From an uncultured Candidatus Binatia bacterium (GTDB taxonomy: Bacteria > Desulfobacterota > Binatia > Bin18): a stretch of 64,000 bases of DNA. The notes beneath the pieces are model-generated. The model did not search any database and was not told the origin of the DNA. It saw only the letters and a program-made list of their open reading frames with translations. The position numbers and the translations under genes were made by a program. This document shows, one piece after another, positions 8,019 through 64,000 of this stretch. Position 1 is the first letter of the stretch. The number at the start of each line of letters is the position of its first letter. The DNA lies in NCBI GenBank assembly GCA_965214755.1, contig OZ243979.1, positions 3,669,022-3,733,021 of the forward strand. Reading direction: 5' to 3'.

Positions 8019-9515
8019 GTGTTTTCAAAGATACTCATTGCAAACCGAGGTGAGATCGCCACTCGTATCGCTCGGACCTGTCGCGAAATGGATATTACGA
8101 CAGTGGCCGTGTACTCGGAGGCTGACCGTTCTTCACCCCATCTGTATGCGGCAGACGAGGCTGTGTGCGTGGGGCCGGCCCAGGCAAGCGAGAGCTATCT
8201 CAACGTGGAGTCTATCCTGGCCGTGGCCCGCCGGACCGGAGCCGACGCGGTCCATCCAGGGTATGGCTTTTTATCGGAGAATGCAACATTTGCTCGGGCC
8301 GTGGCTGATGCCGGTCTGACCTTTATCGGTCCTGCTCCAGATGCCCTGTCTGCGGTTGGAAATAAGATTGTTGCGCGCCGGACCGTGGCTCAACTCGGCG
8401 TTCCGGTGATTCCCGCCCTCGAAGACCCGGCGACCGACCCTGAGACTGTACGGGAGCAAGTTGCCGCACTCGGCTACCCCCTCTTGATTAAAGCAGCTGC
8501 GGGTGGGGGCGGTAAAGGAATGCGTATTGTGCGCCAGGAGGCCGAGTTGGTTGACGCCTTGTCCGCGGCGCAACGCGAAGCCGAAGCCGCCTTTGCCGAA
8601 GGCACGGTGTATGTCGAGCGTTTTCTCGAACGTCCACACCATGTGGAAGTCCAGATTCTTGGTGACACCGCCGGCAACATCGTCCATCTTGGCGAACGGG
8701 AGTGCTCCATTCAGCGCCGCTATCAAAAAATAGTCGAAGAGACCCCCTCGCCAGCCGTGTCCGAGTCCTTGCGGCAGGAGATGACGAGGGCCGCGCTGAC
8801 TGTGGCCAGGGCTGCGGGTTATGACAACGCCGGAACCGTAGAGTTCATCCTCGACAACGCCGGGAAATTCTATTTCCTGGAAGTCAACGCCCGTCTCCAA
8901 GTTGAGCATCCGATTACCGAGTGGATTACTGGTCTGGACCTGGTGCACGAACAAATTCGGATTGCCGCCGGAGAAACGCTGGGCTTCCAGCAAGACGACA
9001 TCTACCGTAATGGCCACGCCCTTGAGTGCCGTCTGTATGCGGAAGATGCCGCCCACGGGTTCCTGCCGTCACCCGGACATGTCCTGGCCTGGCATGCGCC
9101 CCAGGGGCCAGGAGTGCGGGTTGACTCCGGGGTCGAGTCGCAGACCGAGGTCCCGATATACTACGATCCCATGATTGCCAAGATTTCGACCTGGGGAGCG
9201 GACCGTGAACAAGCCCGGCGACGCATGGCCGGGGCGCTTCGTCAAACGGCAATTCTGGGACTCACGACCAATCTGCCTTTTTTGATTGAGCTCATGGACC
9301 ACCCTGCCTTTGCCGCCGGCGATACCCACACCGGCTTTCTGCCCGAGCATTTTCCGAACTGGCAGCCTGGCGAGCAGCCGCATACGCTTGCTGCCGCTTT
9401 GGCCGCCAGCCTGCACCGCGGTCCATATCGAAACGCTGATGGACAGACCGCTCTGCCCTCGCAGGACCCCTCGACACCGTGGCGACAGCTTGGCGGCTGG
9501 CGCCTCGGCTCCTGA
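8019..9515 (+). CDS. Biotin carboxylase subunit of an acyl-CoA carboxylase (BC domain + start of BT region)
   Basis: MFSKILIANRGEIATRIARTCREMDI...HPGYGFLSENA...ATP-grasp...EHPITE; 498 aa. Confidence 0.85.
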   Translation: MFSKILIANRGEIATRIARTCREMDITTVAVYSEADRSSPHLYAADEAVCVGPAQASESYLNVESILAVARRTGADAVHPGYGFLSENATFARAVADAGLTFIGPAPDALSAVGNKIVARRTVAQLGVPVIPALEDPATDPETVREQVAALGYPLLIKAAAGGGGKGMRIVRQEAELVDALSAAQREAEAAFAEGTVYVERFLERPHHVEVQILGDTAGNIVHLGERECSIQRRYQKIVEETPSPAVSESLRQEMTRAALTVARAAGYDNAGTVEFILDNAGKFYFLEVNARLQVEHPITEWITGLDLVHEQIRIAAGETLGFQQDDIYRNGHALECRLYAEDAAHGFLPSPGHVLAWHAPQGPGVRVDSGVESQTEVPIYYDPMIAKISTWGADREQARRRMAGALRQTAILGLTTNLPFLIELMDHPAFAAGDTHTGFLPEHFPNWQPGEQPHTLAAALAASLHRGPYRNADGQTALPSQDPSTPWRQLGGWRLGS

Positions 9516-9540
9516 TACCCGAATGATTCTGAAACGACTC

Positions 9541-9594
9541 AAAGAGTAAACGTGTCCTCCACTAGACATGATATGCTGGACACGTTTACTCTTT
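9541..9594. repeat. Palindromic repeat element copy 8, between the BC ORF and the BT/BCCP ORF
   Basis: aaagagtaaacgtgtcctccactagacatgatatgctggacacgtttactcttt. Confidence 0.85.
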
Positions 9595-10121
9595 CTGAAA
9601 TGAAGACCTTCCTCTATGCCGCGGGTGAAGAACTGGTGCTGGAGTATAACCAACACGGCGAGCGCGACGATCTGTACGAGCTTGTCTGGAACGGCCAGAC
9701 TCAGCAACCGGCACACGTGGTCGCTATCCGGGATGGTACGATCACCTTCCTGGTTGATGGTCTCCCTCTTCATGCCTATGTGGTCCGGGATGGTGACCGC
9801 AGCCTGATATCCATCGAGGGGCGGACCTACGAATTCAATCACACTCCACCTCAGCACACCCGAGCCCGTCAGCGGGGGACGAGTGGAAGCTTTGAGCCTG
9901 AGATCCGCTCTCCCATGCCAGGGAAAATTCTCAACGTCAAAGTCGTCGAAGGCGAGGTTGTAGGAGACGGCCAAACCCTCGTGCTCCTCGAAGCGATGAA
10001 AATGGAGAATGCGCTGACTGCCGAGGGGAATGCCCGGGTGGCAACCATCCATGTGGCCGACGGAGACCTTGTCGAGCTTGGTCAGGTTCTGGTCGAGCTT
10101 GAGCCAATCGAAGCAGAGTAA
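9552..10121 (+). CDS. Biotin carboxyl carrier (biotinyl domain) protein with an N-terminal BT-like region; the annotated start lies within repeat copy 8
   Basis: C-terminal EAMKMEN biotinylation motif; the N-terminal ~100 aa resemble the BT-domain hairpins of PCC/MCC alpha subunits; true start may be 9573 or 9601. Confidence 0.65.
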   Translation: MSSTRHDMLDTFTLSEMKTFLYAAGEELVLEYNQHGERDDLYELVWNGQTQQPAHVVAIRDGTITFLVDGLPLHAYVVRDGDRSLISIEGRTYEFNHTPPQHTRARQRGTSGSFEPEIRSPMPGKILNVKVVEGEVVGDGQTLVLLEAMKMENALTAEGNARVATIHVADGDLVELGQVLVELEPIEAE

Positions 10122-10138
10122 GCCCAGTGAACGTACTC

Positions 10139-11053
10139 TCAGTCGAGTTGGGAACCTATCTGAAGCCCGATATGCCGAGCGAGCTCGTCAGCGGCGATCT
10201 TTCCCTGCTCACCGCGAAGCTTTTTGGCGACGACCGTGCCACCGTTCAGGGCAATACTGACCGTCCCACCCCCAAGAGCGACCACTTGGCCTGGGGTTGC
10301 TGATCCGCCAGTCGGCTGCAGGCGACAGTCATACAAACGAATTTTCTGTCCGCGCCATGTTGTTGATGCGCCGGGCTGCGGGTCGCAACCGCGAATATGA
10401 TCAAAGACGGCGTGTGCTGGCTTAGACCAGTCAATGCCAGCATGTTCGTCCCGACACAACGGATCGTAATTGGCCTGGGATTCGTCTTGGACAATGCGCG
10501 GCGGACTGCCGGCTTGAATCAGATCGATCGCTTCGCCAGCGGCCTCAATACCGAGCGGGAAGAGTTTGTTGAAATACAGGGTTCCGGTTGTATCTTCCGG
10601 GCCAATTTCGACTTCTTTTTGAAGCAGTATCGGACCGGTATCAATGCCCTCGTCTACCCAGAACCAGGAGATCCCGGTCTTTTTCTCACCATTGATCAGG
10701 GTCCAGTTAATCGCACTCCCACCACGATACTTGGGTAAGAGTGACGGGTGAAAACAGATACTGCCGAGTTTGGGTGCGTTGAACACTGGAGGCGGAACAA
10801 TTTGGGTCACAAATGCCAATACGGCGAGGTCAGCGTCGAGTTCCTGAAATTTCTCCAGGACCTCAGGGCCCTTCATGGAGCGGTGTTGATACACGGGAAT
10901 GTCGAGTTCCCCTGCCCGCTTTTTGACCGGATCAAACTTTCCTTCGATTCTGTCCGGGGGGCAGAACACCGCCGGGATGTCCTGACCCTTGTCGCGGAGC
11001 TTATCGAGCGTTTTTTCCGCAAACGCGGCTTGACCGATGAGAATGATACGCAT
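10139..11053 (-). CDS. Formyltransferase-family protein (methionyl-tRNA formyltransferase-like)
   Basis: HPSLLPKYRGGSAINW and DTGPILLQ motifs of the formyl-transferase fold plus a C-terminal Fmt-like domain. Confidence 0.55.
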   Translation of the reverse strand: MRIILIGQAAFAEKTLDKLRDKGQDIPAVFCPPDRIEGKFDPVKKRAGELDIPVYQHRSMKGPEVLEKFQELDADLAVLAFVTQIVPPPVFNAPKLGSICFHPSLLPKYRGGSAINWTLINGEKKTGISWFWVDEGIDTGPILLQKEVEIGPEDTTGTLYFNKLFPLGIEAAGEAIDLIQAGSPPRIVQDESQANYDPLCRDEHAGIDWSKPAHAVFDHIRGCDPQPGASTTWRGQKIRLYDCRLQPTGGSATPGQVVALGGGTVSIALNGGTVVAKKLRGEQGKIAADELARHIGLQIGSQLD

Positions 11054-11801
11054 GTGGGTTCTCCTTTCCGTGTGGTGGGAATACGTCCTTCAGCACGTGG
11101 CTCAGCTTTTGGCCCATTGCAGCAATACTCATCCTGTTCAGCAATAAGCGGTTATTGATTTCGATTTCGAGATAGACGAGATGATGACGCTCGCCATGGT
11201 TCCGGGCGCTAAAGATAAGACCATCATAACCGGAGTAGGGCTCGTTATAGCGCACCCGATAGCCGGCGTGGCCCAGCCGTTGCCCGAACTCCTGAGCAAG
11301 GTCTTCGTAGCGGTCGAATAGGATACCTAAATCAAACGACCTTTTCTTCTCACCGAGGACCGGGGTAAAGCTGTGAACGCTGAGCAGAAAAACAGGCAGT
11401 GGCATTTTTTGCGTCAGCACGTGGTCAATAGCCGCATGATAGGGTTGGTAGAATTGCGTAATACGTTGCTGTTGTTCTACCTCGGTCAGATGCCTATTGG
11501 CCGGAACGCGCGTACCATTGCTCTCAGGAAGAATGAGATCATCGTCTGACAGGGCACGGTTGCAGTCAATTAAGAGGCGCGAGTATTGAGATAAAATAGC
11601 TGTGGAATCGACATGTTGGGTGATCTCCTGGACAACCGCCCGCGCACCAATGTCCCAGCCGATATGTCGTCGTAACTCGTCAGGAGGAATCCCGAGCGTC
11701 TCGTATTCAGGCGGGAGCGCGTATGACGCGTGTTCACAGGTCAGCACCACCGGAAAGGTGCCGTTCGGGTTGAGAAGCGTGAAGGGAGGCGCTGTGTGCA
11801 C
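11001..11801 (-). CDS. N-formylglutamate amidohydrolase family protein
   Basis: 266 aa; N-terminal LTCEHASYALP... pattern typical of FGase/HutG-like zinc amidohydrolases; overlaps the downstream formyltransferase by 53 nt. Confidence 0.55.
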   Translation of the reverse strand: MHTAPPFTLLNPNGTFPVVLTCEHASYALPPEYETLGIPPDELRRHIGWDIGARAVVQEITQHVDSTAILSQYSRLLIDCNRALSDDDLILPESNGTRVPANRHLTEVEQQQRITQFYQPYHAAIDHVLTQKMPLPVFLLSVHSFTPVLGEKKRSFDLGILFDRYEDLAQEFGQRLGHAGYRVRYNEPYSGYDGLIFSARNHGERHHLVYLEIEINNRLLLNRMSIAAMGQKLSHVLKDVFPPHGKENPHAYHSHRSSRVCGKNAR

Positions 11802-54669: not shown

Positions 54670-55686
54670 TTATGCGGAAAACGCTTTGACTATCGAGCGC
54701 CAGCGGGCATCGTTCACGCCCGGGCGGTCGGGATGATAGAAGGCCACCCGGTCGAGCAGGCCGTCGTATTTTTCTTTGAGCATGGCCGGAACTTCAGCTG
54801 GGGAACCGGTCACCGCGTACGCGTCCAGCATCTCGTCGGTCACGTCCCTGGCCATGGCCTGCCACTCGCCCTTGGCCGCTTTGGCGTTCAGGCGGAGACA
54901 CACGTCGCCCCAGCCGTGGACGTCCAGCACGGGTTTATACGTTCGGGTAGAGGCATAGAACGCAATCTGCATACGCACCTTTTCGCGCATGGCGTCCATT
55001 TCTTTTTGCGTGTCACCCATAATCACAAAAGACGAGCTTGAGACTATGATGTCTTTTCGGCTACGATCGGATTTCTGCGCTCCCTCTTCAATCTGGGGGA
55101 GCACCCGTTCGCGCAGAAATTTCGCCGAATGAAACGGGTGGGCGTGAAAGCCGTCGCACAACTCGCCCGCCAAACGGCAGATATACGGGTTCACCCCGGC
55201 GATATAGATGGGAATCTGCGGATGGTCGATTTTTCCTGGCGAAAAGGCCGGGGTCATCAGCGTATGCTGATAAAACTCGCCCTGAAAGTCCAACGGCGCG
55301 CCGTTCTGCCAGCAGTCCCAAATCGCTCGCAGCGCCAGAACAATCTCGCGCAGCTTCGGACCCGGCGATTCCCATTTTACACTATACCGCCGCTGGTTAT
55401 GGCCCTTCACCTGGGTGCCGAGTCCCAGAACGAAGCGCCCGTTTGAGGCACGTTGCAGGTCCCAGGCCGTATAGGCCAGCGACATCGGGCTGCGCGGAAA
55501 CGCCAGGGCAATCGCCGTGCCGAGGGTGAGCTTGGTGGTGACGGTCGCCGAGACGGCGAGCGAAAGAAAGGGGTCGTGCTGGTTCTCCATGCTCCACACC
55601 CCGTCAAAACCCATGTCTTCGGCAGTGCGCGCAATCGCAATCGCTTCGTCGAGCGAGCGGGCGGTCAGTAAGCTGTCGAGTTTCAT
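54670..55686 (-). CDS. LLM-class (luciferase-like) flavin/F420-dependent oxidoreductase
   Basis: MKLDSLLTARSLDEAIAIARTAEDMGFDGVWSMENQHDPF. Confidence 0.75.
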   Translation of the reverse strand: MKLDSLLTARSLDEAIAIARTAEDMGFDGVWSMENQHDPFLSLAVSATVTTKLTLGTAIALAFPRSPMSLAYTAWDLQRASNGRFVLGLGTQVKGHNQRRYSVKWESPGPKLREIVLALRAIWDCWQNGAPLDFQGEFYQHTLMTPAFSPGKIDHPQIPIYIAGVNPYICRLAGELCDGFHAHPFHSAKFLRERVLPQIEEGAQKSDRSRKDIIVSSSSFVIMGDTQKEMDAMREKVRMQIAFYASTRTYKPVLDVHGWGDVCLRLNAKAAKGEWQAMARDVTDEMLDAYAVTGSPAEVPAMLKEKYDGLLDRVAFYHPDRPGVNDARWRSIVKAFSA

Positions 55687-58133: not shown

Positions 58134-59009
58134 CTATACCCGCCCAATAACCGTGTCCCCAATCTCTTTGACATAATCTGTAATTTCTGTCTCAGTAGAG
58201 CTGAGTGTGAACAGGGCGTCTCCTTTGGGCGGGAAGAGCAGAATCAAACGATCCACGCCCAGGTCCGCATAACGTTTGGCCGTGTCGAGATCGATCCGTC
58301 CAACCGGAGTCACGCTGATTTCGAGCGTGCCTAAGCTACTCGGGCGTTCATTTTGTTCTTCTGCAGCTTTCAGGCCATCGAAGCATTTTTTGGTTCCGTC
58401 CACATCGAGGGCAAAGCCGTACCAGCCGTTGCCATGGGTCACGGAACGCTGAAACGCCTGGGGGGTCATACCGCCAAACACGACCGGCGGACCGGGCTGC
58501 TGCACCGGCTTGGGAAATGCCTTGATCCCACTAAAAGAGGCAAACTGGCCCTGGTAGGACGGGTCGTCCTGACTCCAAATAGTCCGCATGGCATCAACGT
58601 AATCAAGCGTGCGCGGCCCTTTATGGCTGAACGGCGCTCCGAGGGCGTCAAATTCCGGCTTGAGATAGCCAATGCCAACACCAAAGATCAGGCGTCCGCC
58701 TGACAGAACATCCAGGCTGGCCATCTCTTTTGCCAGCACCAGCGGATTCCGTTGCGGCAAAATAATAATGCCGGTTCCCATGCGGATGGTTTGGGTCTGG
58801 CCGGCCAGAAAGGCAAAGGCGATATTGGGGTCGAGCATGGGGTAGGTTGGCGGTAACGGCGAAGGCGGCTCCTGCGGGTCCGGCAACACAATGTGTTCGC
58901 CCGCCCAGACGGATTCAAACCCAGCGGCCTCGGCTGCCTGCGCCACCCGCGCTGATGCGTCCGGCGTACTGCACGGTCCCATATTGATGCCAAAGAGTCC
59001 AAGTTGCAT
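58134..59009 (-). CDS. LLM-class flavin/F420-dependent oxidoreductase
   Basis: MQLGLFGINMGPCSTPDASARVAQAAEAAGFESVWAGEHIVLP. Confidence 0.75.
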   Translation of the reverse strand: MQLGLFGINMGPCSTPDASARVAQAAEAAGFESVWAGEHIVLPDPQEPPSPLPPTYPMLDPNIAFAFLAGQTQTIRMGTGIIILPQRNPLVLAKEMASLDVLSGGRLIFGVGIGYLKPEFDALGAPFSHKGPRTLDYVDAMRTIWSQDDPSYQGQFASFSGIKAFPKPVQQPGPPVVFGGMTPQAFQRSVTHGNGWYGFALDVDGTKKCFDGLKAAEEQNERPSSLGTLEISVTPVGRIDLDTAKRYADLGVDRLILLFPPKGDALFTLSSTETEITDYVKEIGDTVIGRV

Positions 59010-59099
59010 GTCTTTCCTCCTTTATTATCAAGTGTAGAGAGACATACGCCGAAATGGCACAGATGAGAAGGTGGGCGAGAAATAACGTTCCCGTGGTTC

Positions 59100-59870
59100 T
59101 AGGCTGAATCGGCATTGAATGCTGCCGGAGGGCGAAGGCGGCGAGGTGTAAGCAGGCGAGGAAGGGGGCGGTCTTGCGGGCATAGCGGGAAGCAAGGCGG
59201 CGGCAGTGTTTGCGCCGATTGCAGGTGCGCTCAATCCAGTTCCGCTGCTTGTAGAGCGTCCGGTCATAGGGCCGGGCCACCCGGCGCCCGGGCCGGGATC
59301 ACCGGCGTGGCTCCTTGGCCTTTAATGGACGCAATGAGGGCCGGATTATCAGAGGCGTTGTCGACAATGCCGGAGCGGGCGCGGAGGCCGGTGAGCAGCG
59401 CCTTGGCCTGCGGCCTGTCGTGCCGCGGCCCAGCAGTGCCCAGCAAGCAGCCGGGCCGCCCGTGGCCGTCTACGGCCAGAGGAAGCGTGGGGGTCAATCC
59501 GCCTCGGGCACGCCCCACAGGCGGCCGGGCGGCCCCCCTTTTCCAGTCACCGCTTGCTGCTGCGCTCGCCCGCTCGTACGGTCGAGCATAAGAGAGGCGT
59601 TGGGACGGGCCGCCGTCAGGGGCGCCAACACGCGCGCCTACACCCCGGCCCGCGCCCCGCGCGTCAAGCGTTTCTGGATGCGCTTCCAGTGGCCGGAGCG
59701 CGCCGGGAGGGCACCCCACCGCGCCCCGCTCCGCACGCCCCACAGGCCGCCGTTGACGAACCGGCGATTATCGCCCGCCGGCCGCCCGCGGTCCGTTCCC
59801 TTGCCGGGGTGGCTATCCTTGAGCTGCTCCCAGTGCTGCGGACTCCATTCATACCGCTTCGCCATGCTCC
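59100..59870 (-). mobile_element. IS5-family (IS427-group-like) insertion sequence, very GC-rich; transposase reading frame split over three frames
   Basis: Minus-strand ORF fragments: 59865-59638 (KRYEWSPQHWEQLKDSHPGKGTDRGRPAGDNRRFVNGGLWGVRSGARWGALPARSGHWKRIQKRLTR, the classic IS427 orfA N-terminus), 59743-59264 (DGHGRP...TAGPRHD...VIPAR), 59280-59130 (DRTLYKQRNWIERTCNRRKHCRRLASRY, the IS5 C-terminal signature); ends not mapped. Confidence 0.7.
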
Positions 59871-59970
59871 CGCCCTGGCCTGCCTTGCATGGCTTTATCG
59901 CTTCCTCCCTAAACCTGTGTTAATTGTCGAGTCGCCCTAGTCCCTTACCAGGGACGAGAGAAAATTTAAG

Positions 59971-60615
59971 ATGAATGAGAAGTTTCTGAAACGATTTGAA
60001 GAACTCCAGGAGCAATCGGATTCGTTGCCGTTTGAACAAGGTGGATATTCCCGGTACGTATCGGAAGGAAGGTGGCAAAGATGGGCCACAAGTTGTCAAA
60101 ATCTCATCAGGGCCGTGTTCGGGGAAGAATCTCCTCACTATAACAACTTTGTAGAAGCACTAAAGGGATGTCGCGGAGGTGAGGGCGAGATAAATGCCCT
60201 CCAAGGAGTCTTCCAAAGCGCCAAAGAAGATTTTGAAGGCGGCTACGTTTTCAATGTGGACCTCAGAATTTCTGGAGAGGTCTTCGGCGATTTCGTCGTT
60301 CTGGCTAAGCAGTCTCTTACTGATGGTCACAAAGATGTGGCGGCGGTTTTGGCATCTGCCGCGTTGGAGGACGCGTTGAAACGTTACGCAAACGCTGAAG
60401 GTCTGAATATCGACAACCAATCGATGTCAGAAGTCATTAATGCACTCAAATCAAAAAGGCTAGTGTCAGGAGCCCAGAAATCCCTATTGGACGCCATGCC
60501 ACGTATAAGAAATTTTGCAATGCACGCCAATTGGGAAAAAATATCAGAGCCGGACGTTAACGGGGTTATCGGTTTTGTTGAGCAGTTCCTCCTAACAAAA
60601 TTCAGCCAGGACTAA
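59971..60615 (+). CDS. HEPN-domain protein (DUF4145-like), in an AT-rich island
   Basis: 214 aa; C-terminal RNFAMHANWEKIS contains an Rx4H HEPN motif; ~45% GC. Confidence 0.4.
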   Translation: MNEKFLKRFEELQEQSDSLPFEQGGYSRYVSEGRWQRWATSCQNLIRAVFGEESPHYNNFVEALKGCRGGEGEINALQGVFQSAKEDFEGGYVFNVDLRISGEVFGDFVVLAKQSLTDGHKDVAAVLASAALEDALKRYANAEGLNIDNQSMSEVINALKSKRLVSGAQKSLLDAMPRIRNFAMHANWEKISEPDVNGVIGFVEQFLLTKFSQD

Positions 60616-60617
60616 CT

Positions 60618-61199
60618 ATGCCTGACTCCATACTCAAACGGTGGAACATTACTGTCGAAGAACTTACGCAAGTAGTCGACCAGAACCCCAGTCTCAGAGG
60701 AATGATCCTCGGCTACCTTGCCGAGTTGAAGCTAGAGCAGCTCTGGCTCGGGCGCGAAGGGATTTCTCAGGTATCAAAGCATGATGACCATAACAGGAAA
60801 AAGAAAGGCGACCGTGTCGTTACGTACAAAGGTAAGGAATTCATTTTTGAATCGAAATCTCTTCAGACAAACACCATACGGAAAACGGATGAGGGTTGGG
60901 TTGGCAAAGCCCAGGTAGATGCGAGTGACCTGCGCGCGGTCATTCTCCCTAATGGAACTGAAGTACACACAACCTGTTTACTTCGGGGAGAATTTCATAT
61001 TCTGGCTGTCAATATTTTCGCCTTTGAAGAGAAGTGGAGGTTTGTCTTTGCAAAAAACGATGAGTTGCCCTCATCAAGGTATAGAGGCTACGACGAGTAT
61101 CAACGAGACCATTTACTTGCCACCCTTGTAACGGTTCGTTGGCCCCCCAAGCCTCCGTTTTATGAAGAACCGTTTACCCTGATGAACGAGTTGCTGTAG
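60618..61199 (+). CDS. Hypothetical protein with a PD-(D/E)xK-like motif (candidate restriction endonuclease)
   Basis: 193 aa; [17 protein letters not shown] (D...ExK); starts 3 nt after the HEPN gene; converges on the MTase gene. Confidence 0.35.
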
Positions 61200-61959
61200 C
61201 GAATCGCATCTGCGACGCTTTCGTGTTCCTTGGTATCTTCACAAAGATCAGAAAGTATGAATGATTTTTTCGCGCATGTACCTGATTGATTACTCTACTC
61301 ATCCCCGGTTTGTTAGGGCGAACTACGATAAACAAGTCTTTGCAGAAGAAACCGATTTCGGCGAATGAGTTTATAATCTCGACGTGGGTAAGATTTTGTC
61401 TGTTTGCACTGACTTCGTCTTGACATTTGACGATATATACACCTCTCTCTTTCAGAATGCGGCGCGCCTCCTTCCCTCCCTCATTGTACATCTCTAAAAC
61501 TGCCGCGTGCCATTTCGCGCCATTAGGTTTGGGCGCTTCATCACCGTTGGAGTAATGGTCTCTGAACGCAGTGTGTGTCCCATCGCCCGCCTTTATGGCG
61601 TTACTATTCCTGTAGAATCCTTCCATGTATGGCGGGTCGAAAACGACAACATCAAATGAGCTATCTTCATAGGGAAGCTTCCGGCAGTCTATGCCATCCG
61701 CGATATCGGACGGGAAAAATCGATATTTACTTGTATCTACATTTCTCCAGAAAATCCCTTTGCCATATGTTACGTCGGCAATGCGTGCGCCATCTGCTAC
61801 GTGAAGTTGCAGCACTTTCGGAAAGATATCAGCATTATTACCAATATACGCAGAAAATATGAGGTCTGAGGTTGCCACGCCCTCAGGACTTTTTCTTCCT
61901 GACGGGGTGCGGTGTTCCTCAGTCAGGTCAAAGAGCATTTTAACTTGTTCCGTACCCAT
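61174..61959 (-). CDS. DNA methyltransferase (N6-adenine or N4-cytosine, DPPY motif)
   Basis: VVFDPPY catalytic motif; upstream [14 protein letters not shown]-binding-like block; 261 aa. Confidence 0.65.
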
Positions 61960-61965
61960 ATTATA

Positions 61966-62199
61966 TTAATCGACATTTCCAAACTTCTCTTCCAGAAGTT
62001 TTCTTATTGCGTCTGCCATCTTGATTCCCTGTCGTGCGCAGCCTGCCTTAACGTTGGCGTGGAGTTCGGATGGAATATCAATTGTTAGGCGTTTCATCGC
62101 GGGTCGCCCTTCAAATTGAGGAGAGTGTTCGTGGACCACCGGTTCATACGATAATTTATTTTTTCTGTAATTCATTATTTGCGACTTTACGGAAAACAT
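61966..62199 (-). CDS. Ribbon-helix-helix (ParG/CopG-like) small protein upstream of the MTase
   Basis: MKRLTIDIPSELHANVKAGCARQGIKMADAIRKLLEEKF. Confidence 0.5.
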   Translation of the reverse strand: MFSVKSQIMNYRKNKLSYEPVVHEHSPQFEGRPAMKRLTIDIPSELHANVKAGCARQGIKMADAIRKLLEEKFGNVD

Positions 62200-62261
62200 G
62201 CCCGCAGGTCAAGATTGAAGCGTTCTCATTCAAGTGACACAGGCGTCGGGACCGCGCCGCA

Positions 62262-63134
62262 CTACCTCTCCGGCGCGAATGCCTCAATCGCCCGCTCGTC
62301 CGGCACCATGCCACCCTTGGGGCTCAGTGGCATGATACATACGTGTGACGCTCCCGCCTCATAATAGGCAGCAATCCGCTCGCGAATTTTTGCCTCGTCC
62401 CCCCAGGCAATAACCGCGTCTACGATCTGGTCACTGCCGCCGTTTGCCATGTCGGCGTCAGTAAAACCGACCTCTTTGAAGCGTTGGACGTAGTGATCGA
62501 TTTGGAGATAGGTCTGCATGTAACTGCGGGCGGCCGCACGGGCCGTATCCGCATTCGACTCCAGCATGACGCCCAACTCGGCACACAGCCACGGCTCCGG
62601 TCCAAGGGTCTTGCGGGTTGCCGCAATCTGCTCAAGCACGGTGAAATAGGTATGCGTCCCCTGGGTCTGCGTTGCGGAAAGCGCGAGCATCTTGGGCATC
62701 ATCCCGGCCAGCACCACGGGCGGGTCGTTTTGCGGGGCTGGTGCGGCGTACGGTGCGGCTTTCATCTTGGTCAGATATTCGCGCGTGAAGCTGAGGGGCT
62801 TGCCATACGGAATACCGCGCCGGGCGTTACCCTGCGCATTACTCACGCCCAGGCCGAGCACAAAGCGGTCGCCGTATAGCTCGGCGAGCGTCCGGGTCGC
62901 ATTGGCAATCGCAATCGGCTCATACGCATAGGTCACCACAATACCGGTGGCGATGACCAGACGCTCGGTTTGGCTCAGCAAATACGAGGCAAACGAAAAG
63001 CTTTCGCGGCCCAGGGTCTCGGGAAACCACAGGGCGCTATAGCCGAGCTGTTCGACTCTGCGGGCGAGCTGGCCGGTCTGGGCGCCGGTGAGGCCGTCCA
63101 GAAAGGTAAAAACGCCGGGAGGTCGGAGGTTCAT
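62262..63134 (-). CDS. LLM-class flavin/F420-dependent oxidoreductase
   Basis: LGYSALWFPETLGRESFSFASYLL...; LLM TIM-barrel pattern. Confidence 0.7.
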   Translation of the reverse strand: MNLRPPGVFTFLDGLTGAQTGQLARRVEQLGYSALWFPETLGRESFSFASYLLSQTERLVIATGIVVTYAYEPIAIANATRTLAELYGDRFVLGLGVSNAQGNARRGIPYGKPLSFTREYLTKMKAAPYAAPAPQNDPPVVLAGMMPKMLALSATQTQGTHTYFTVLEQIAATRKTLGPEPWLCAELGVMLESNADTARAAARSYMQTYLQIDHYVQRFKEVGFTDADMANGGSDQIVDAVIAWGDEAKIRERIAAYYEAGASHVCIMPLSPKGGMVPDERAIEAFAPER

Positions 63135-63150: not shown

Positions 63151-64000
63151 CTAGCGAAAGGCCGGAATGACCTTGCTGGTAAACAGCTCTAAATGAGGCT
63201 GAATCCAGCTTGCCGGCAGGCCCGGCGGCAGCGTCCACGAATAATAATGCGTCAGCGGAGTCTCTAAGGCATAGTCGCGAATCATCTGAATGCAGGTGTC
63301 AACATCTACCACCTGGAACAGACCCGATTCACGTAATGCCGCGGTATCCGGCACTTTTGGAAACAGGGGCATGCCGGCCTTTTCCGACCACTCAGCATAG
63401 GCATTGACCTGATAGCGGACGTGTTCGGCTGCTTCGTTCCAGGTCTTGTCCGGGTCTTCGGACGGAATCAGCCAAAAATAGCCACCTGCGAGACGAATAT
63501 CCGTGGTGGATTTCCCGACTTTTTCCAAGGCGGTCACATAGCGTTCATACGCCTCTTTCAGCGGACCGACGCCGATATACCCGTCGCCATACTTTGCCGC
63601 CCGCCGGAGTGCCGGCGGGGTGAAACCGCCGACCCAAATCGGTGGTCGTGGTTGCTGAATCGGCTCCGGGGTGAGCCTGGCTTTGGTCACCGTGTAGTAT
63701 TTCCCCTCAAACGTCAGGGTCTCGCCCTCCCACAGGCGACGAATGATTTCGAGGCCCTCATTCGTGCGCGCGCCGCGTTCTTTGCTCGAAATCGCGAAGC
63801 TCTCAAACTCCTCGACTTTATACCCAACGCCCACACCCAGCTCGAACCGGCCACCCGAAATCACGTCCACCGTGGCCGCATCTTCGGCCAACCGGACCGG
63901 ATTATGAAACGGCAGGAGCACCACGCTCGTCCCGATATGAATTTTCCTGGTCCGCGAGGCAATCGCGGCGGCAATCGGCATCAGCGCAGGAGAATAGCCA
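63151..64000 (-). CDS. LLM-class flavin/F420-dependent oxidoreductase (5' partial, runs off the window)
   Basis: ...IHIGTSVVLLPFHNPVRLAEDAATVDVISGGRFELGVGVGY; N-terminus beyond position 64000. Confidence 0.65.
   Translation of the reverse strand, partial: GYSPALMPIAAAIASRTRKIHIGTSVVLLPFHNPVRLAEDAATVDVISGGRFELGVGVGYKVEEFESFAISSKERGARTNEGLEIIRRLWEGETLTFEGKYYTVTKARLTPEPIQQPRPPIWVGGFTPPALRRAAKYGDGYIGVGPLKEAYERYVTALEKVGKSTTDIRLAGGYFWLIPSEDPDKTWNEAAEHVRYQVNAYAEWSEKAGMPLFPKVPDTAALRESGLFQVVDVDTCIQMIRDYALETPLTHYYSWTLPPGLPASWIQPHLELFTSKVIPAFR

Follow-up and report, generated by a model that had tools for sequence, protein, structure and literature searches.

Within the 64,000-nt stretch of Candidatus Binatia DNA analysed here (the window), four genes are located between two genes that both encode Bac_luciferase (LLM) proteins, as identified by Pfam (Table 1). 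A DUF4145 HEPN gene is followed by a restriction endonuclease gene (R), with 2 nt between the stop codon of the former and the start of the latter, so that R begins 3 nt on. R then converges with a DNA methyltransferase gene (M), overlapping it by 26 nt, and M is in turn preceded by a small ribbon-helix-helix (RHH) gene whose stop codon lies 6 nt from the M start codon. The GC content is 46.7% in this cassette, 57-61% in the flanking LLM genes and 56.9% in the entire window, while an insertion sequence (IS) beside the cassette reaches 69.7%. According to the ORF list and the GC values, the four reading frames and their junctions (3 nt and 26 nt), together with the low-GC block and the IS of high GC content, are where a preliminary description of the DNA had put them, and the insertion between LLM genes that it reported also stands. 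The low-GC block is very probably a horizontally acquired cassette, with a type IIP restriction-modification (R-M) system of the NruI/Sbo13I family as its core.

Table 1. Features of the locus, in window coordinates (L001 and L175 are relatives with the same chromosomal site)
Feature	Position	Strand	Size or detail	Basis
HEPN (DUF4145) gene	59971-60615	+	214 aa	ORF list
R endonuclease gene	60618-61199	+	193 aa	ORF list
M methyltransferase gene	61174-61959	-	261 aa	ORF list
RHH gene	61966-62175	-	69 aa from conserved start; 77 aa from upstream ATG at 62199	
RHH-M promoter-like element	62184-62212	-		promoter scan and conservation in relatives
IS5-family (IS427-like) element	59102-59937	-	836 bp, 69.7% GC	Pfam, NCBIfam, empty-site comparison
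TA target-site duplication	left copy 59100-59101, right copy 59938-59939		original target CTAG	read from sequence
Leftover of HEPN-R operon upstream region	59076-59099	+		three-way alignment: window (IS removed), L175, L001

The R protein has no match in Pfam, NCBIfam, PADLOC or PHROGs. Nevertheless, it is 57% identical across 191 aa to R.Sbo13I, the product of the pSB13 R gene (E 4e-72), a homology that places it among the NruI/Sbo13I-family type II restriction endonucleases. Since both single-sequence and profile searches of R, M and the HEPN protein against solved structures returned chance-level matches only, a comparison of folds was required. The structure model of R displays the PD-(D/E)xK nuclease fold, namely an alpha-beta-beta-beta core with an acidic residue starting strand 2 and the (D/E)xK motif in strand 3; the preliminary description had asked for fold predictions of this protein and of the neighbouring one, and a nuclease fold and a HEPN fold, respectively, were modelled. 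Residues E36, D65 and E78-x-K80 (E78-S-K80 in the window) are conserved across the endonuclease family. This conservation favours D65 as the catalytic aspartate, whereas a 'DD' (D56/D57) was proposed for Sbo13I (PMC2890505). The D...ExK motif of R and the Rx4H motif of the HEPN protein, both pointed out earlier, are present and are no chance matches because each is conserved within its own family. The endonuclease family includes about 950 homologues from many phyla and is represented by no Pfam, NCBIfam or PADLOC model; in those plasmid records that were examined, its members carry the label 'hypothetical', and the homologues listed were named nothing beyond 'hypothetical protein'.

Similar considerations apply to M, which is 57% identical to M.Sbo13I (E 9e-106) and matches Pfam N6_N4_Mtase (32.2 bits, cutoff 26.7) and PADLOC MTase_II. 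In particular, motif I (D62-V-T-x-G-x-G, residues 62-68) precedes motif IV (D108-P-P-Y, residues 108-111) in a gamma-like order that agrees with the description of the M.NruI/M.Sbo13I subgroup (PMC2890505), and both motifs are invariant among 23 relatives in the family alignment. By these sequence criteria M is a cognate DNA amino-methyltransferase of that subgroup. Indeed, M is found in convergent pairing with R in all 87 loci retrieved, never apart from it, which runs counter to the orphan methyltransferase that the preliminary description had named as evidence against its view.

The best reference for the pair is the cloned Sbo13I system, an NruI isoschizomer that restricts and modifies TCG^CGA (PMC2890505). 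The resemblance to Sbo13I (pSB13, NC_019357.1) and NruI concerns the near full-length identity of both proteins, the opposite orientation of R and M, the gamma-like M with its DPPY motif and the PD-(D/E)xK-type motif of R ending in E-x-K. The differences lie in the context, as Sbo13I resides on a small enterobacterial plasmid and the system in the window is chromosomal, in a Binatia-like MAG; moreover, no helix-turn-helix (HTH) C gene is found 5' of R in the window, where the HEPN gene occupies that position and the RHH gene precedes M. The predicted cut site of R would be TCG^CGA. An identity of 57% does not guarantee the same specificity for R and R.Sbo13I. For comparison, NruI and Sbo13I are 46% identical to each other (PMC2890505). 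The window contains 14 TCGCGA sites against 28 expected from dinucleotide shuffles, a two-fold depletion; under a Markov expectation, the hexamer ranks an unremarkable 55th of 64 six-base palindromes and is thus not specially avoided. Avoidance was dropped as evidence for the recognition site, and the site counts in the window lend the prediction no independent support. In the proposed scheme, M would modify host TCGCGA sites, either as N6-methyladenine or as N4-methylcytosine, the two characterised M relatives differing in this respect, and R would cleave incoming DNA at TCG^CGA sites that lack the modification.

The gene upstream of M was correctly recognised in the preliminary description as encoding a small RHH protein, and only its start had to be refined from 62199 to 62175, where the ATG and its context ATGAA(A/T)TAC are kept in homologues. 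The protein matches Pfam ParG (24.5 bits, cutoff 21.4; 3.1e-5), more weakly ParD, 56B_RHH and CopG/CopG_antitoxin, and the PHROG Arc-like repressor (8e-5). Its core, which begins MKRLTIDIP..., is ParG/Arc-like, and on sequence grounds it belongs to the RHH (MetJ/Arc/ParG) DNA-binding proteins. It is encoded by the leading gene of RHH-M, a conserved operon under a promoter of its own, which is made up of TTGACC, a 17-nt spacer and TAAAGT (TAAAAT in relatives); TTGAC and GTAAAATCG.AAAT.ATGAAATAC are kept across 15 loci from several phyla. The RHH ATG lies 9 nt downstream of the -10 box, which suggests a leaderless or near-leaderless mRNA. In relatives, the near-palindrome TCGTAAATCATGAAATACGA overlaps the start codon, and it is degraded in the window. 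The RHH protein is most likely an autorepressor, and predicted controller, of its own promoter.

Control by a small protein is known from type II R-M, for instance from PvuII, AhdI and Esp1396I, which are regulated by an HTH controller, the C protein. These C-protein-regulated systems have been reviewed (PMC3874152). The RHH gene resembles them in that it is the first gene of an operon inside the R-M cassette, encodes a small DNA-binding protein and lies so near its promoter that a leaderless mRNA is possible. It differs in fold, RHH instead of HTH, and in position, as it precedes M and not R; hence it would mainly repress M and itself, and would not act as a delayed activator of R. Among 80 genome loci of the family, 39 have an HTH C gene upstream of R, 15 have an RHH gene before M, and none has both. 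A search of the whole window for a C.Sbo13I homologue found none, the best match having E 2.0 and lying outside the cassette. The RHH protein is probably an alternative R-M controller that, co-transcribed with M from the cassette promoter, would most likely repress that promoter and so fill the regulatory role held in the Sbo13I branch by the HTH C protein upstream of R.

The fold of the small protein also allows a different interpretation, namely a toxin-antitoxin-like addiction module in which the HEPN protein, the nuclease or both are toxins, RHH is the antitoxin and M is incidental or an orphan. RHH proteins are often antitoxins and HEPN proteins often toxins, and ParD and CopG_antitoxin are among the Pfam matches listed above. 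Such a module is very improbable, since the RHH gene is on the strand opposite to the HEPN gene and forms an operon with M, RHH accompanies R-M without HEPN in 13 of the 80 loci, HEPN occurs without RHH in L012 and L175, and M is always found with R. In addition, the cassette has no MNT gene and the HepT model scores 12 bits, below its cutoff of 60 (E 0.14), which also sets it apart from the HEPN-MNT (type VII) systems. Strand, operon layout and co-occurrence all speak against RHH as the HEPN antitoxin, and this role was discarded.

The first gene of the cassette encodes a true HEPN protein. It matches Pfam DUF4145 (29 bits, cutoff 23.1), and its structure model comprises an N-terminal helical domain (residues 1-90, approximately), a low-confidence linker and a C-terminal domain with the helical HEPN fold. 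The Rx4H motif reads R180-N-F-A-M-H185 (RNxxxH), and R180 and H185 never vary in 30 sequences, N181 being conserved to at least 90%. The closest functional parallel is RAZR (PD-T7-4), a single-gene DUF4145 HEPN RNase that acts by abortive infection (PMC13017515). The two share a C-terminal DUF4145-type HEPN domain with the conserved arginine and histidine, a one-gene organization and variable defence neighbourhoods without fixed partners. Whereas the N-terminal part of RAZR is a Cys4 zinc finger, that of the protein in the window is a different, helical domain, which weakly matches the PADLOC candidate PDC-S35; the protein has just two cysteines, C42 and C67, and no zinc-finger Pfam match. Based on the motif and on the parallel with RAZR, the protein would have RNase activity, and it is most likely an autonomous abortive-infection-type RNase that rides along with the R-M system.

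The distribution of the HEPN family is relevant to a second interpretation, according to which the locus is one integrated two-layer system that moves as a unit, with the HEPN RNase coupled to R-M and either kept latent by it or sensing its failure, as in PrrC/EcoprrI. DUF4145 HEPN genes in operons with R-M systems were described in 2013 (Anantharaman et al., PMC3710099), where such a logic was proposed for HEPN genes on the nuclease side of the R-M operon, which is also their side here. In the window the HEPN gene is directly 5' of R on the same strand, at a distance of 2 nt; in L012 the two genes overlap (ATGA), and in L176 they are 16 nt apart. A tight HEPN-R junction is found at at least four unrelated chromosomal sites (the window, L010/L012 and L176, and with a spacer of 119 nt L015 as well), and this recurrence hints at more than accidental neighbourhood. 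Indeed, the HEPN-R-M(-RHH) block has been found between LLM genes, beside tRNA-Met, beside priA and in a Nitrospirales MAG, and the closest HEPN homologues (83-100% identity) are on contigs that match in extent those with the closest R homologues. Against this, the R-M system is without HEPN in 77 of the 80 genome loci and accompanied by it in 3, while R-M is absent from all 85 loci of HEPN relatives. No fixed partner emerges among these 85 loci: of 143 neighbour proteins, 107 are singletons, and each Pfam family is limited to at most 3 of 149 neighbours. The comparison with PrrC/RloC is further weakened by the 214-aa HEPN protein having no ATPase domain and by its partner being a type II system, not a type I hsd locus.

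Two relatives with the same chromosomal site are particularly informative. L001 has kept R-M and bears deletion scars of HEPN and RHH, while L175 has kept HEPN and bears deletion scars of R and RHH. In L175, the HEPN gene is intact and under purifying selection after the deletion of R-M, which argues against a PrrC-like dependence of HEPN on R-M: in PrrC-EcoprrI, an ABC-type ATPase protein is kept latent by a type I system, and with such latency the loss of R-M would be toxic, whereas here HEPN persists without it. The dN/dS ratios of HEPN, R and M (0.06-0.17) are close to those of the flanking genes, and those of R and M against L001 are about 0.1. One integrated system is thus an unlikely account of the locus. 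Equally improbable is the stronger version of it, in which HEPN-R-M-RHH would be a four-gene, two-layer cassette spreading as a unit, RHH would take the place of the HTH C protein as a class of R-M controller not recognised so far, and the RNase would be co-translated with the endonuclease and triggered upon restriction failure. As for the preliminary description, its term 'composite island' is apt as a description, but the parts are modules that can be separated and differ in age, not one integrated system. Of its two suggestions, the one of a type II R-M system to which an RHH controller and an extra HEPN effector are added is borne out by the folds and the constant M-R pairing, while the other, a toxin pair of HEPN and nuclease under the guard of a methylase, finds no support, given the separate occurrence of HEPN and R-M, even at the same site.

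The element on the other side of the HEPN gene is a later arrival, whose insertion point beside the cassette precedes the HEPN start codon by 31 nt. It is a member of the IS5 family, IS427 group, in the ISfinder grouping, with Pfam matches to DUF4096 (2e-13) and DDE_Tnp_1 and an NCBIfam match to transpos_IS5_3 (3.9e-12). The transposase reads leftwards, and three-frame translation reveals a first frame change at the usual DUF4096/DDE junction; two-CDS annotation of such elements has been noted (PMC9241763). The length of about 0.8 kb, the DUF4096 and DDE transposase with a frame change that splits it and the TA duplication at CTAG are as in the IS427 group, but the window copy departs from it in having imperfect terminal repeats (13/21; GGCTGAATCGG... 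/ GGGCGACTCGA...) and a second frame change, which interrupts the DDE region between ...VIPARAPGGPAL and RVARPYDRTLYKQRNWIER. With this extra change, the transposase is not intact (a sequencing error being possible), and the copy is probably defective or mis-assembled. An automatic inverted-repeat search missed the repeats, and the ends were located via the empty sites in relatives, as CTAG is uninterrupted in L175 (empty site CGTGGTCCTAGACCCTTACC) and L001; in this way the termini and target-site duplication, whose mapping had been suggested earlier, were placed (Table 1). No second copy of the IS was found in the window.

The region between the IS and the cassette is relevant to a third interpretation, namely that the locus is in decay, with an orphan-like methyltransferase and transcriptionally silenced HEPN and R genes. 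Upstream of the HEPN-R position, L175 and L001 carry TTGACA-17-TAGCGT; the window misses about 105 nt there, including the TTGACA -35 box, and the IS now parts the remainder from the HEPN gene. No plus-strand promoter-like site was detected between the IS and the HEPN gene by a scan that was limited to the sigma-70 consensus. When an HEPN-R promoter was sought across insertion sites, TTGACA-17-TAGCGT was found only in the same-site relatives, and the lost 'promoter' is a consensus match that is not conserved at the other sites. These losses, together with the modules already shed by the same-site relatives, point towards decay. On the other hand, all four ORFs are intact, the dN/dS values of R and M given above are low, and outward promoters are often supplied by IS ends. 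Decay is possible but rather doubtful; the upstream deletion and the IS insertion may nonetheless have weakened HEPN-R transcription in the window.

All in all, there is a high probability that the locus is a horizontally acquired cassette made of an NruI/Sbo13I-family R-M core, an RHH regulator gene and an optional, autonomous HEPN RNase gene. According to this explanation, an ancestor of the lineage would have had all four genes at this site, after which one relative would have lost HEPN and RHH and another R-M-RHH. The HEPN gene is probably co-transcribed with R and would add a second layer of defence that does not need R-M, as a single-protein RNase of abortive-infection type comparable in principle to RAZR. 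The earlier statement that no named system matches the arrangement does not hold, as the R-M core belongs to a characterised family (PMC2890505) and the linkage of DUF4145 genes with R-M has been published (PMC3710099). The island is a tidy example of modular defence and no new kind of system, and the locus contains no new biological principle.

The value of the locus lies in what it makes accessible. The link between the endonuclease family and Sbo13I/NruI makes its loci annotatable as probable TCGCGA systems. The mutual exclusivity of an HTH C gene 5' of R and an RHH gene 5' of M provides a clean natural experiment on rewired R-M control. Finally, a single chromosomal site with HEPN and R-M in one relative, R-M only in another and HEPN only in a third indicates that the modules of a defence island are gained and lost independently.

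The island between the two LLM (Bac_luciferase) genes is a type II restriction-modification (R-M) system of the NruI/Sbo13I family with two optional accessories, a 214-aa DUF4145 protein (HEPN) and a small ribbon-helix-helix protein (RHH), and a later insertion of an insertion sequence (IS). The feature positions of the preliminary description were borne out by the ORF listing, Pfam and GC content, and its reading as a type II R-M system with an RHH controller and an extra HEPN effector is essentially right; its statement that no named system matches is wrong. The ORFs of the endonuclease (R) and the methyltransferase (M) are convergent and overlap by 26 nt. The GC content of the HEPN-R-M-RHH cassette (59940-62253) is 46.7% versus 69.7% in the left-hand element, as compared with 56.9% in the whole window and 57-61% in the two flanking genes.

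Features of the island and of related sites
Feature	Position	Strand	Basis or content
HEPN ORF, 214 aa	59971-60615	+	ORF listing; Pfam DUF4145, 29 bits (cutoff 23.1)
R ORF, 193 aa	60618-61199	+	ORF listing
M ORF, 261 aa	61174-61959	-	ORF listing; Pfam N6_N4_Mtase
RHH ORF, 77 aa as listed	61966-62199	-	ORF listing; Pfam ParG/RHH
Predicted RHH-M promoter, TTGACC-17-TAAAGT	62212-62184	-	Promoter scan; same site as alignment
IS, 836 bp	59102-59937	- (transposase)	Bounds from uninterrupted sites in L175, L001
GC-rich element			Pfam DUF4096 + DDE transposase pieces
Both genes flanking island			Pfam Bac_luciferase
Bac_luciferase paralogues	54670-55686, 58134-59009, 62262-63134, 63151-63981
tRNA-Met region upstream of block	L010 3194-3269; L012 3189-3265

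R has no match in Pfam, NCBIfam, PADLOC or PHROGs. Its family comprises 946 homologues (435 representatives after clustering at 50%), and a convergent homologue of M is present in all 87 loci retrieved via R, with the identities of R and M declining together from locus to locus. By tblastn, the pair is also found on annotated plasmids: pSB13, one of 3.6 kb from E. coli, and one each from Vibrio and Leptospira. The 5,424-bp Shigella boydii plasmid pSB13 carries in order an HTH gene, a 224-aa 'hypothetical protein' and a convergent DNA methyltransferase, the gene order reported for Sbo13I (PMC2890505). Sbo13I, which was cloned by phage selection and recognises TCG^CGA as NruI does, resides in S. 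boydii C13 on a plasmid of 5.4 kb (PMC2890505). Both window proteins are 57% identical to their pSB13 counterparts (E 4e-72 for R and 9e-106 for M), while NruI and Sbo13I share 46% mutual identity (PMC2890505). On sequence grounds, R and M are best assigned as an R-M pair of the NruI/Sbo13I type.

M.NruI and M.Sbo13I form a gamma-group subgroup whose motif IV is DPPY (PMC2890505), and the window M agrees exactly with this description, as motif I (D-V-T-x-G-x-G, 62-68) lies ahead of DPPY (108-111) in M and 22 relatives. The base that it modifies cannot be inferred, since M.NruI is apparently an m6A and M.Sbo13I probably an m4C methyltransferase (PMC2890505). Across an alignment of 50 diverse R members, conservation of E36, D65, E78 and K80 is 90% or higher. 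The catalytic acid was proposed to be a 'DD' at the position of D56/D57 (PMC2890505); conservation and the structure model favour D65 over D56/D57 as the putative catalytic Asp. M also matches the phage family phrog_24333 (E 1.7e-63), thus phages carry M.NruI-like methyltransferases too, presumably as anti-restriction orphans.

TCG^CGA is the predicted recognition site of the window system. The window contains 14 TCGCGA sites versus 28 ± 5.5 in dinucleotide shuffles, and in the Markov comparison it ranks 55th in avoidance among all 64 six-base palindromes, so that site avoidance gives no independent support for it. Several palindromes, unlike TCGCGA, are strongly avoided in the window (observed versus Markov expected), namely TTCGAA (1 versus 14.5), GGATCC (1 versus 9.3) and CTCGAG (5 versus 20.6), which may be a trace of further R-M systems that this genome has or once had.

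Of 80 genome loci, 15 have an RHH homologue directly upstream of M. In several relatives the upstream translation has a stop codon right before a conserved Met-Lys-Tyr, hence the window RHH probably starts at the ATG at 62175 (69 aa). Alignment of the upstream DNA of the 15 loci (Nitrospira, Binatia, Spirochaetia, Dehalococcoidia, Vicinamibacteria and others) revealed a conserved TTGAC box and, ~17 nt further, GTAAAATCG.AAAT.ATGAAATAC. These boxes read as a putative -35/-10 pair with the start codon 9 nt after it, a spacing suggesting that the RHH transcript would be leaderless or almost so. As 6 nt separate the RHH stop codon from the M start codon, the two genes form an operon. When the Sbo13I C protein was used as query on the same 80 loci, an HTH controller (C) gene was found just upstream of R in 39, in all of which R is at most 63% identical to the window R; RHH is present in none of these 39; 15 loci have RHH alone and 26 have neither. 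No C homologue was found in the window with this query. RHH is probably an alternative controller, the best evidence being the mutual exclusivity of RHH and C genes in one R-M family. In a review of R-M regulation, RHH regulators come up solely in connection with toxin-antitoxin systems (PMC3874152), and the literature searched yielded no account of an R-M controller of the RHH type.

The HEPN family comprises 1,852 homologues, with R180 and H185 invariant and N181 nearly so; DUF4145 matched 30/30 sampled members and the HEPN model 19/30. Linkage to R-M is rare, as the HEPN gene occurs in only three of the 80 genome R-M loci (L010, L012, L015) and in one more case (L176) from a separate look-up, and neither R nor M was found in any of 85 loci retrieved via HEPN relatives. 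In the latter, 107/143 immediate neighbour proteins are singletons, every Pfam family occurs in at most 3/149 neighbours, and integrases, resolvases, type ISP, ResIII, TIR and Bpu10I genes are mixed with housekeeping genes. Relatives ~67-70% identical (L088, L089-L091) are found in two Binatia-like contigs, beside type ISP/IIG R-M genes (N6_Mtase + Type_ISP_C), and in Peristeroidobacter soli, within an integrase/AlpA island. A DUF4145 HEPN protein, RAZR, was shown experimentally to act as a lone abortive-infection RNase (PMC13017515), and the operon linkage of DUF4145 to R-M was noted in 2013, when multi-layered defence was proposed (PMC3710099).

The HEPN-R-M-RHH block recurs beside a tRNA-Met gene (L010; likewise L012, without RHH), beside priA (L176/L177) and in a Nitrospirales MAG (L015), where the HEPN-R spacer is 119 nt. 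In L010 and L012, two Binatia MAGs, HEPN-R-M lies directly 3' of the tRNA-Met gene and its terminator hairpin, a position typical of integration hot spots. Across loci L008-L087 the R-M pair is 70-95% identical in protein among MAGs labelled Binatia, Nitrospira/Nitrospirales, Latescibacterota, Poribacteria, Dehalococcoidia, Spirochaetia, Vicinamibacteria, Gemmatimonadetes and Entotheonella, a pattern implying that the pair spread recently by horizontal transfer in a single type of community. The taxa, like some of the bin names, are presumably typical of marine-sponge microbiomes.

Two related genomes share the window's flanking synteny (MFS, ECH and LLM genes). The first, a Binatia MAG (L001/L040), has only R and M at the site, 87% identical in DNA to the window (flanks 85-91%); dS between window and L001 is 0.41 for R and 0.64 for M, comparable to the flanks (~0.45), hence the R-M pair is older than their split. 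What is left in L001 indicates that HEPN and RHH were deleted: ahead of R stands a fusion of the HEPN upstream sequence with the ~30 nt at the 3' end of the gene, and the final RHH codons persist beside M. The second, L175, has only an intact HEPN gene (77% identical to the window HEPN), after which R codons 1-14 run into an RHH fragment (codons ~35-46); this indicates deletion of R, M and most of RHH. It follows that the ancestor had the whole HEPN-R-M-RHH block here and that its modules were lost independently. Purifying selection is seen on each of HEPN, R and M (dN/dS 0.06-0.17). The window and L175 (4001-4648) HEPN genes have a dS of 0.86 (79.7% nucleotide identity), while syntenic flanking genes are less diverged (dS 0.2-0.35, 89-93%), an excess that could reflect recombinational replacement or a faster rate.

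At least four Bac_luciferase paralogues lie inside 10 kb of the window, and the gaps between them are variable insertion sites in related genomes. The next two LLM paralogues adjoin in the window (junction 63134/63151); in L001 they are separated by an extra ~3.4 kb with three unannotated ORFs (8257-11721). Within this stretch of L001, 9584-9778 has 67% nucleotide similarity to the window M gene (61249-61443) and is perhaps a decayed second copy of an M.NruI-like gene.

The IS lies 31 nt 5' of the HEPN ATG in what was originally a CTAG site, with the TA duplicated on either side of it. It encodes on the minus strand a DUF4096 + DDE (IS5_3-type) transposase (Pfam, NCBIfam) whose reading frame changes twice, once at the usual junction and once within the DDE domain; this copy is probably defective, unless the latter change is an assembly error. 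No other copy was found within the window. Independently of the IS insertion, the window lacks ~105 nt that L175 and L001 have upstream, including a promoter-like TTGACA-17-TAGCGT, and the promoter scan found no sigma-70-like site between IS and HEPN gene; going by consensus matches only, HEPN-R transcription may thus be reduced in this genome.

Collectively, the locus goes beyond an ordinary R-M system in its RHH-M operon in place of the C-R arrangement, in a HEPN-R fusion operon that is recurrent yet dispensable, and in clear deletion scars, which demonstrate that the modules are separable.
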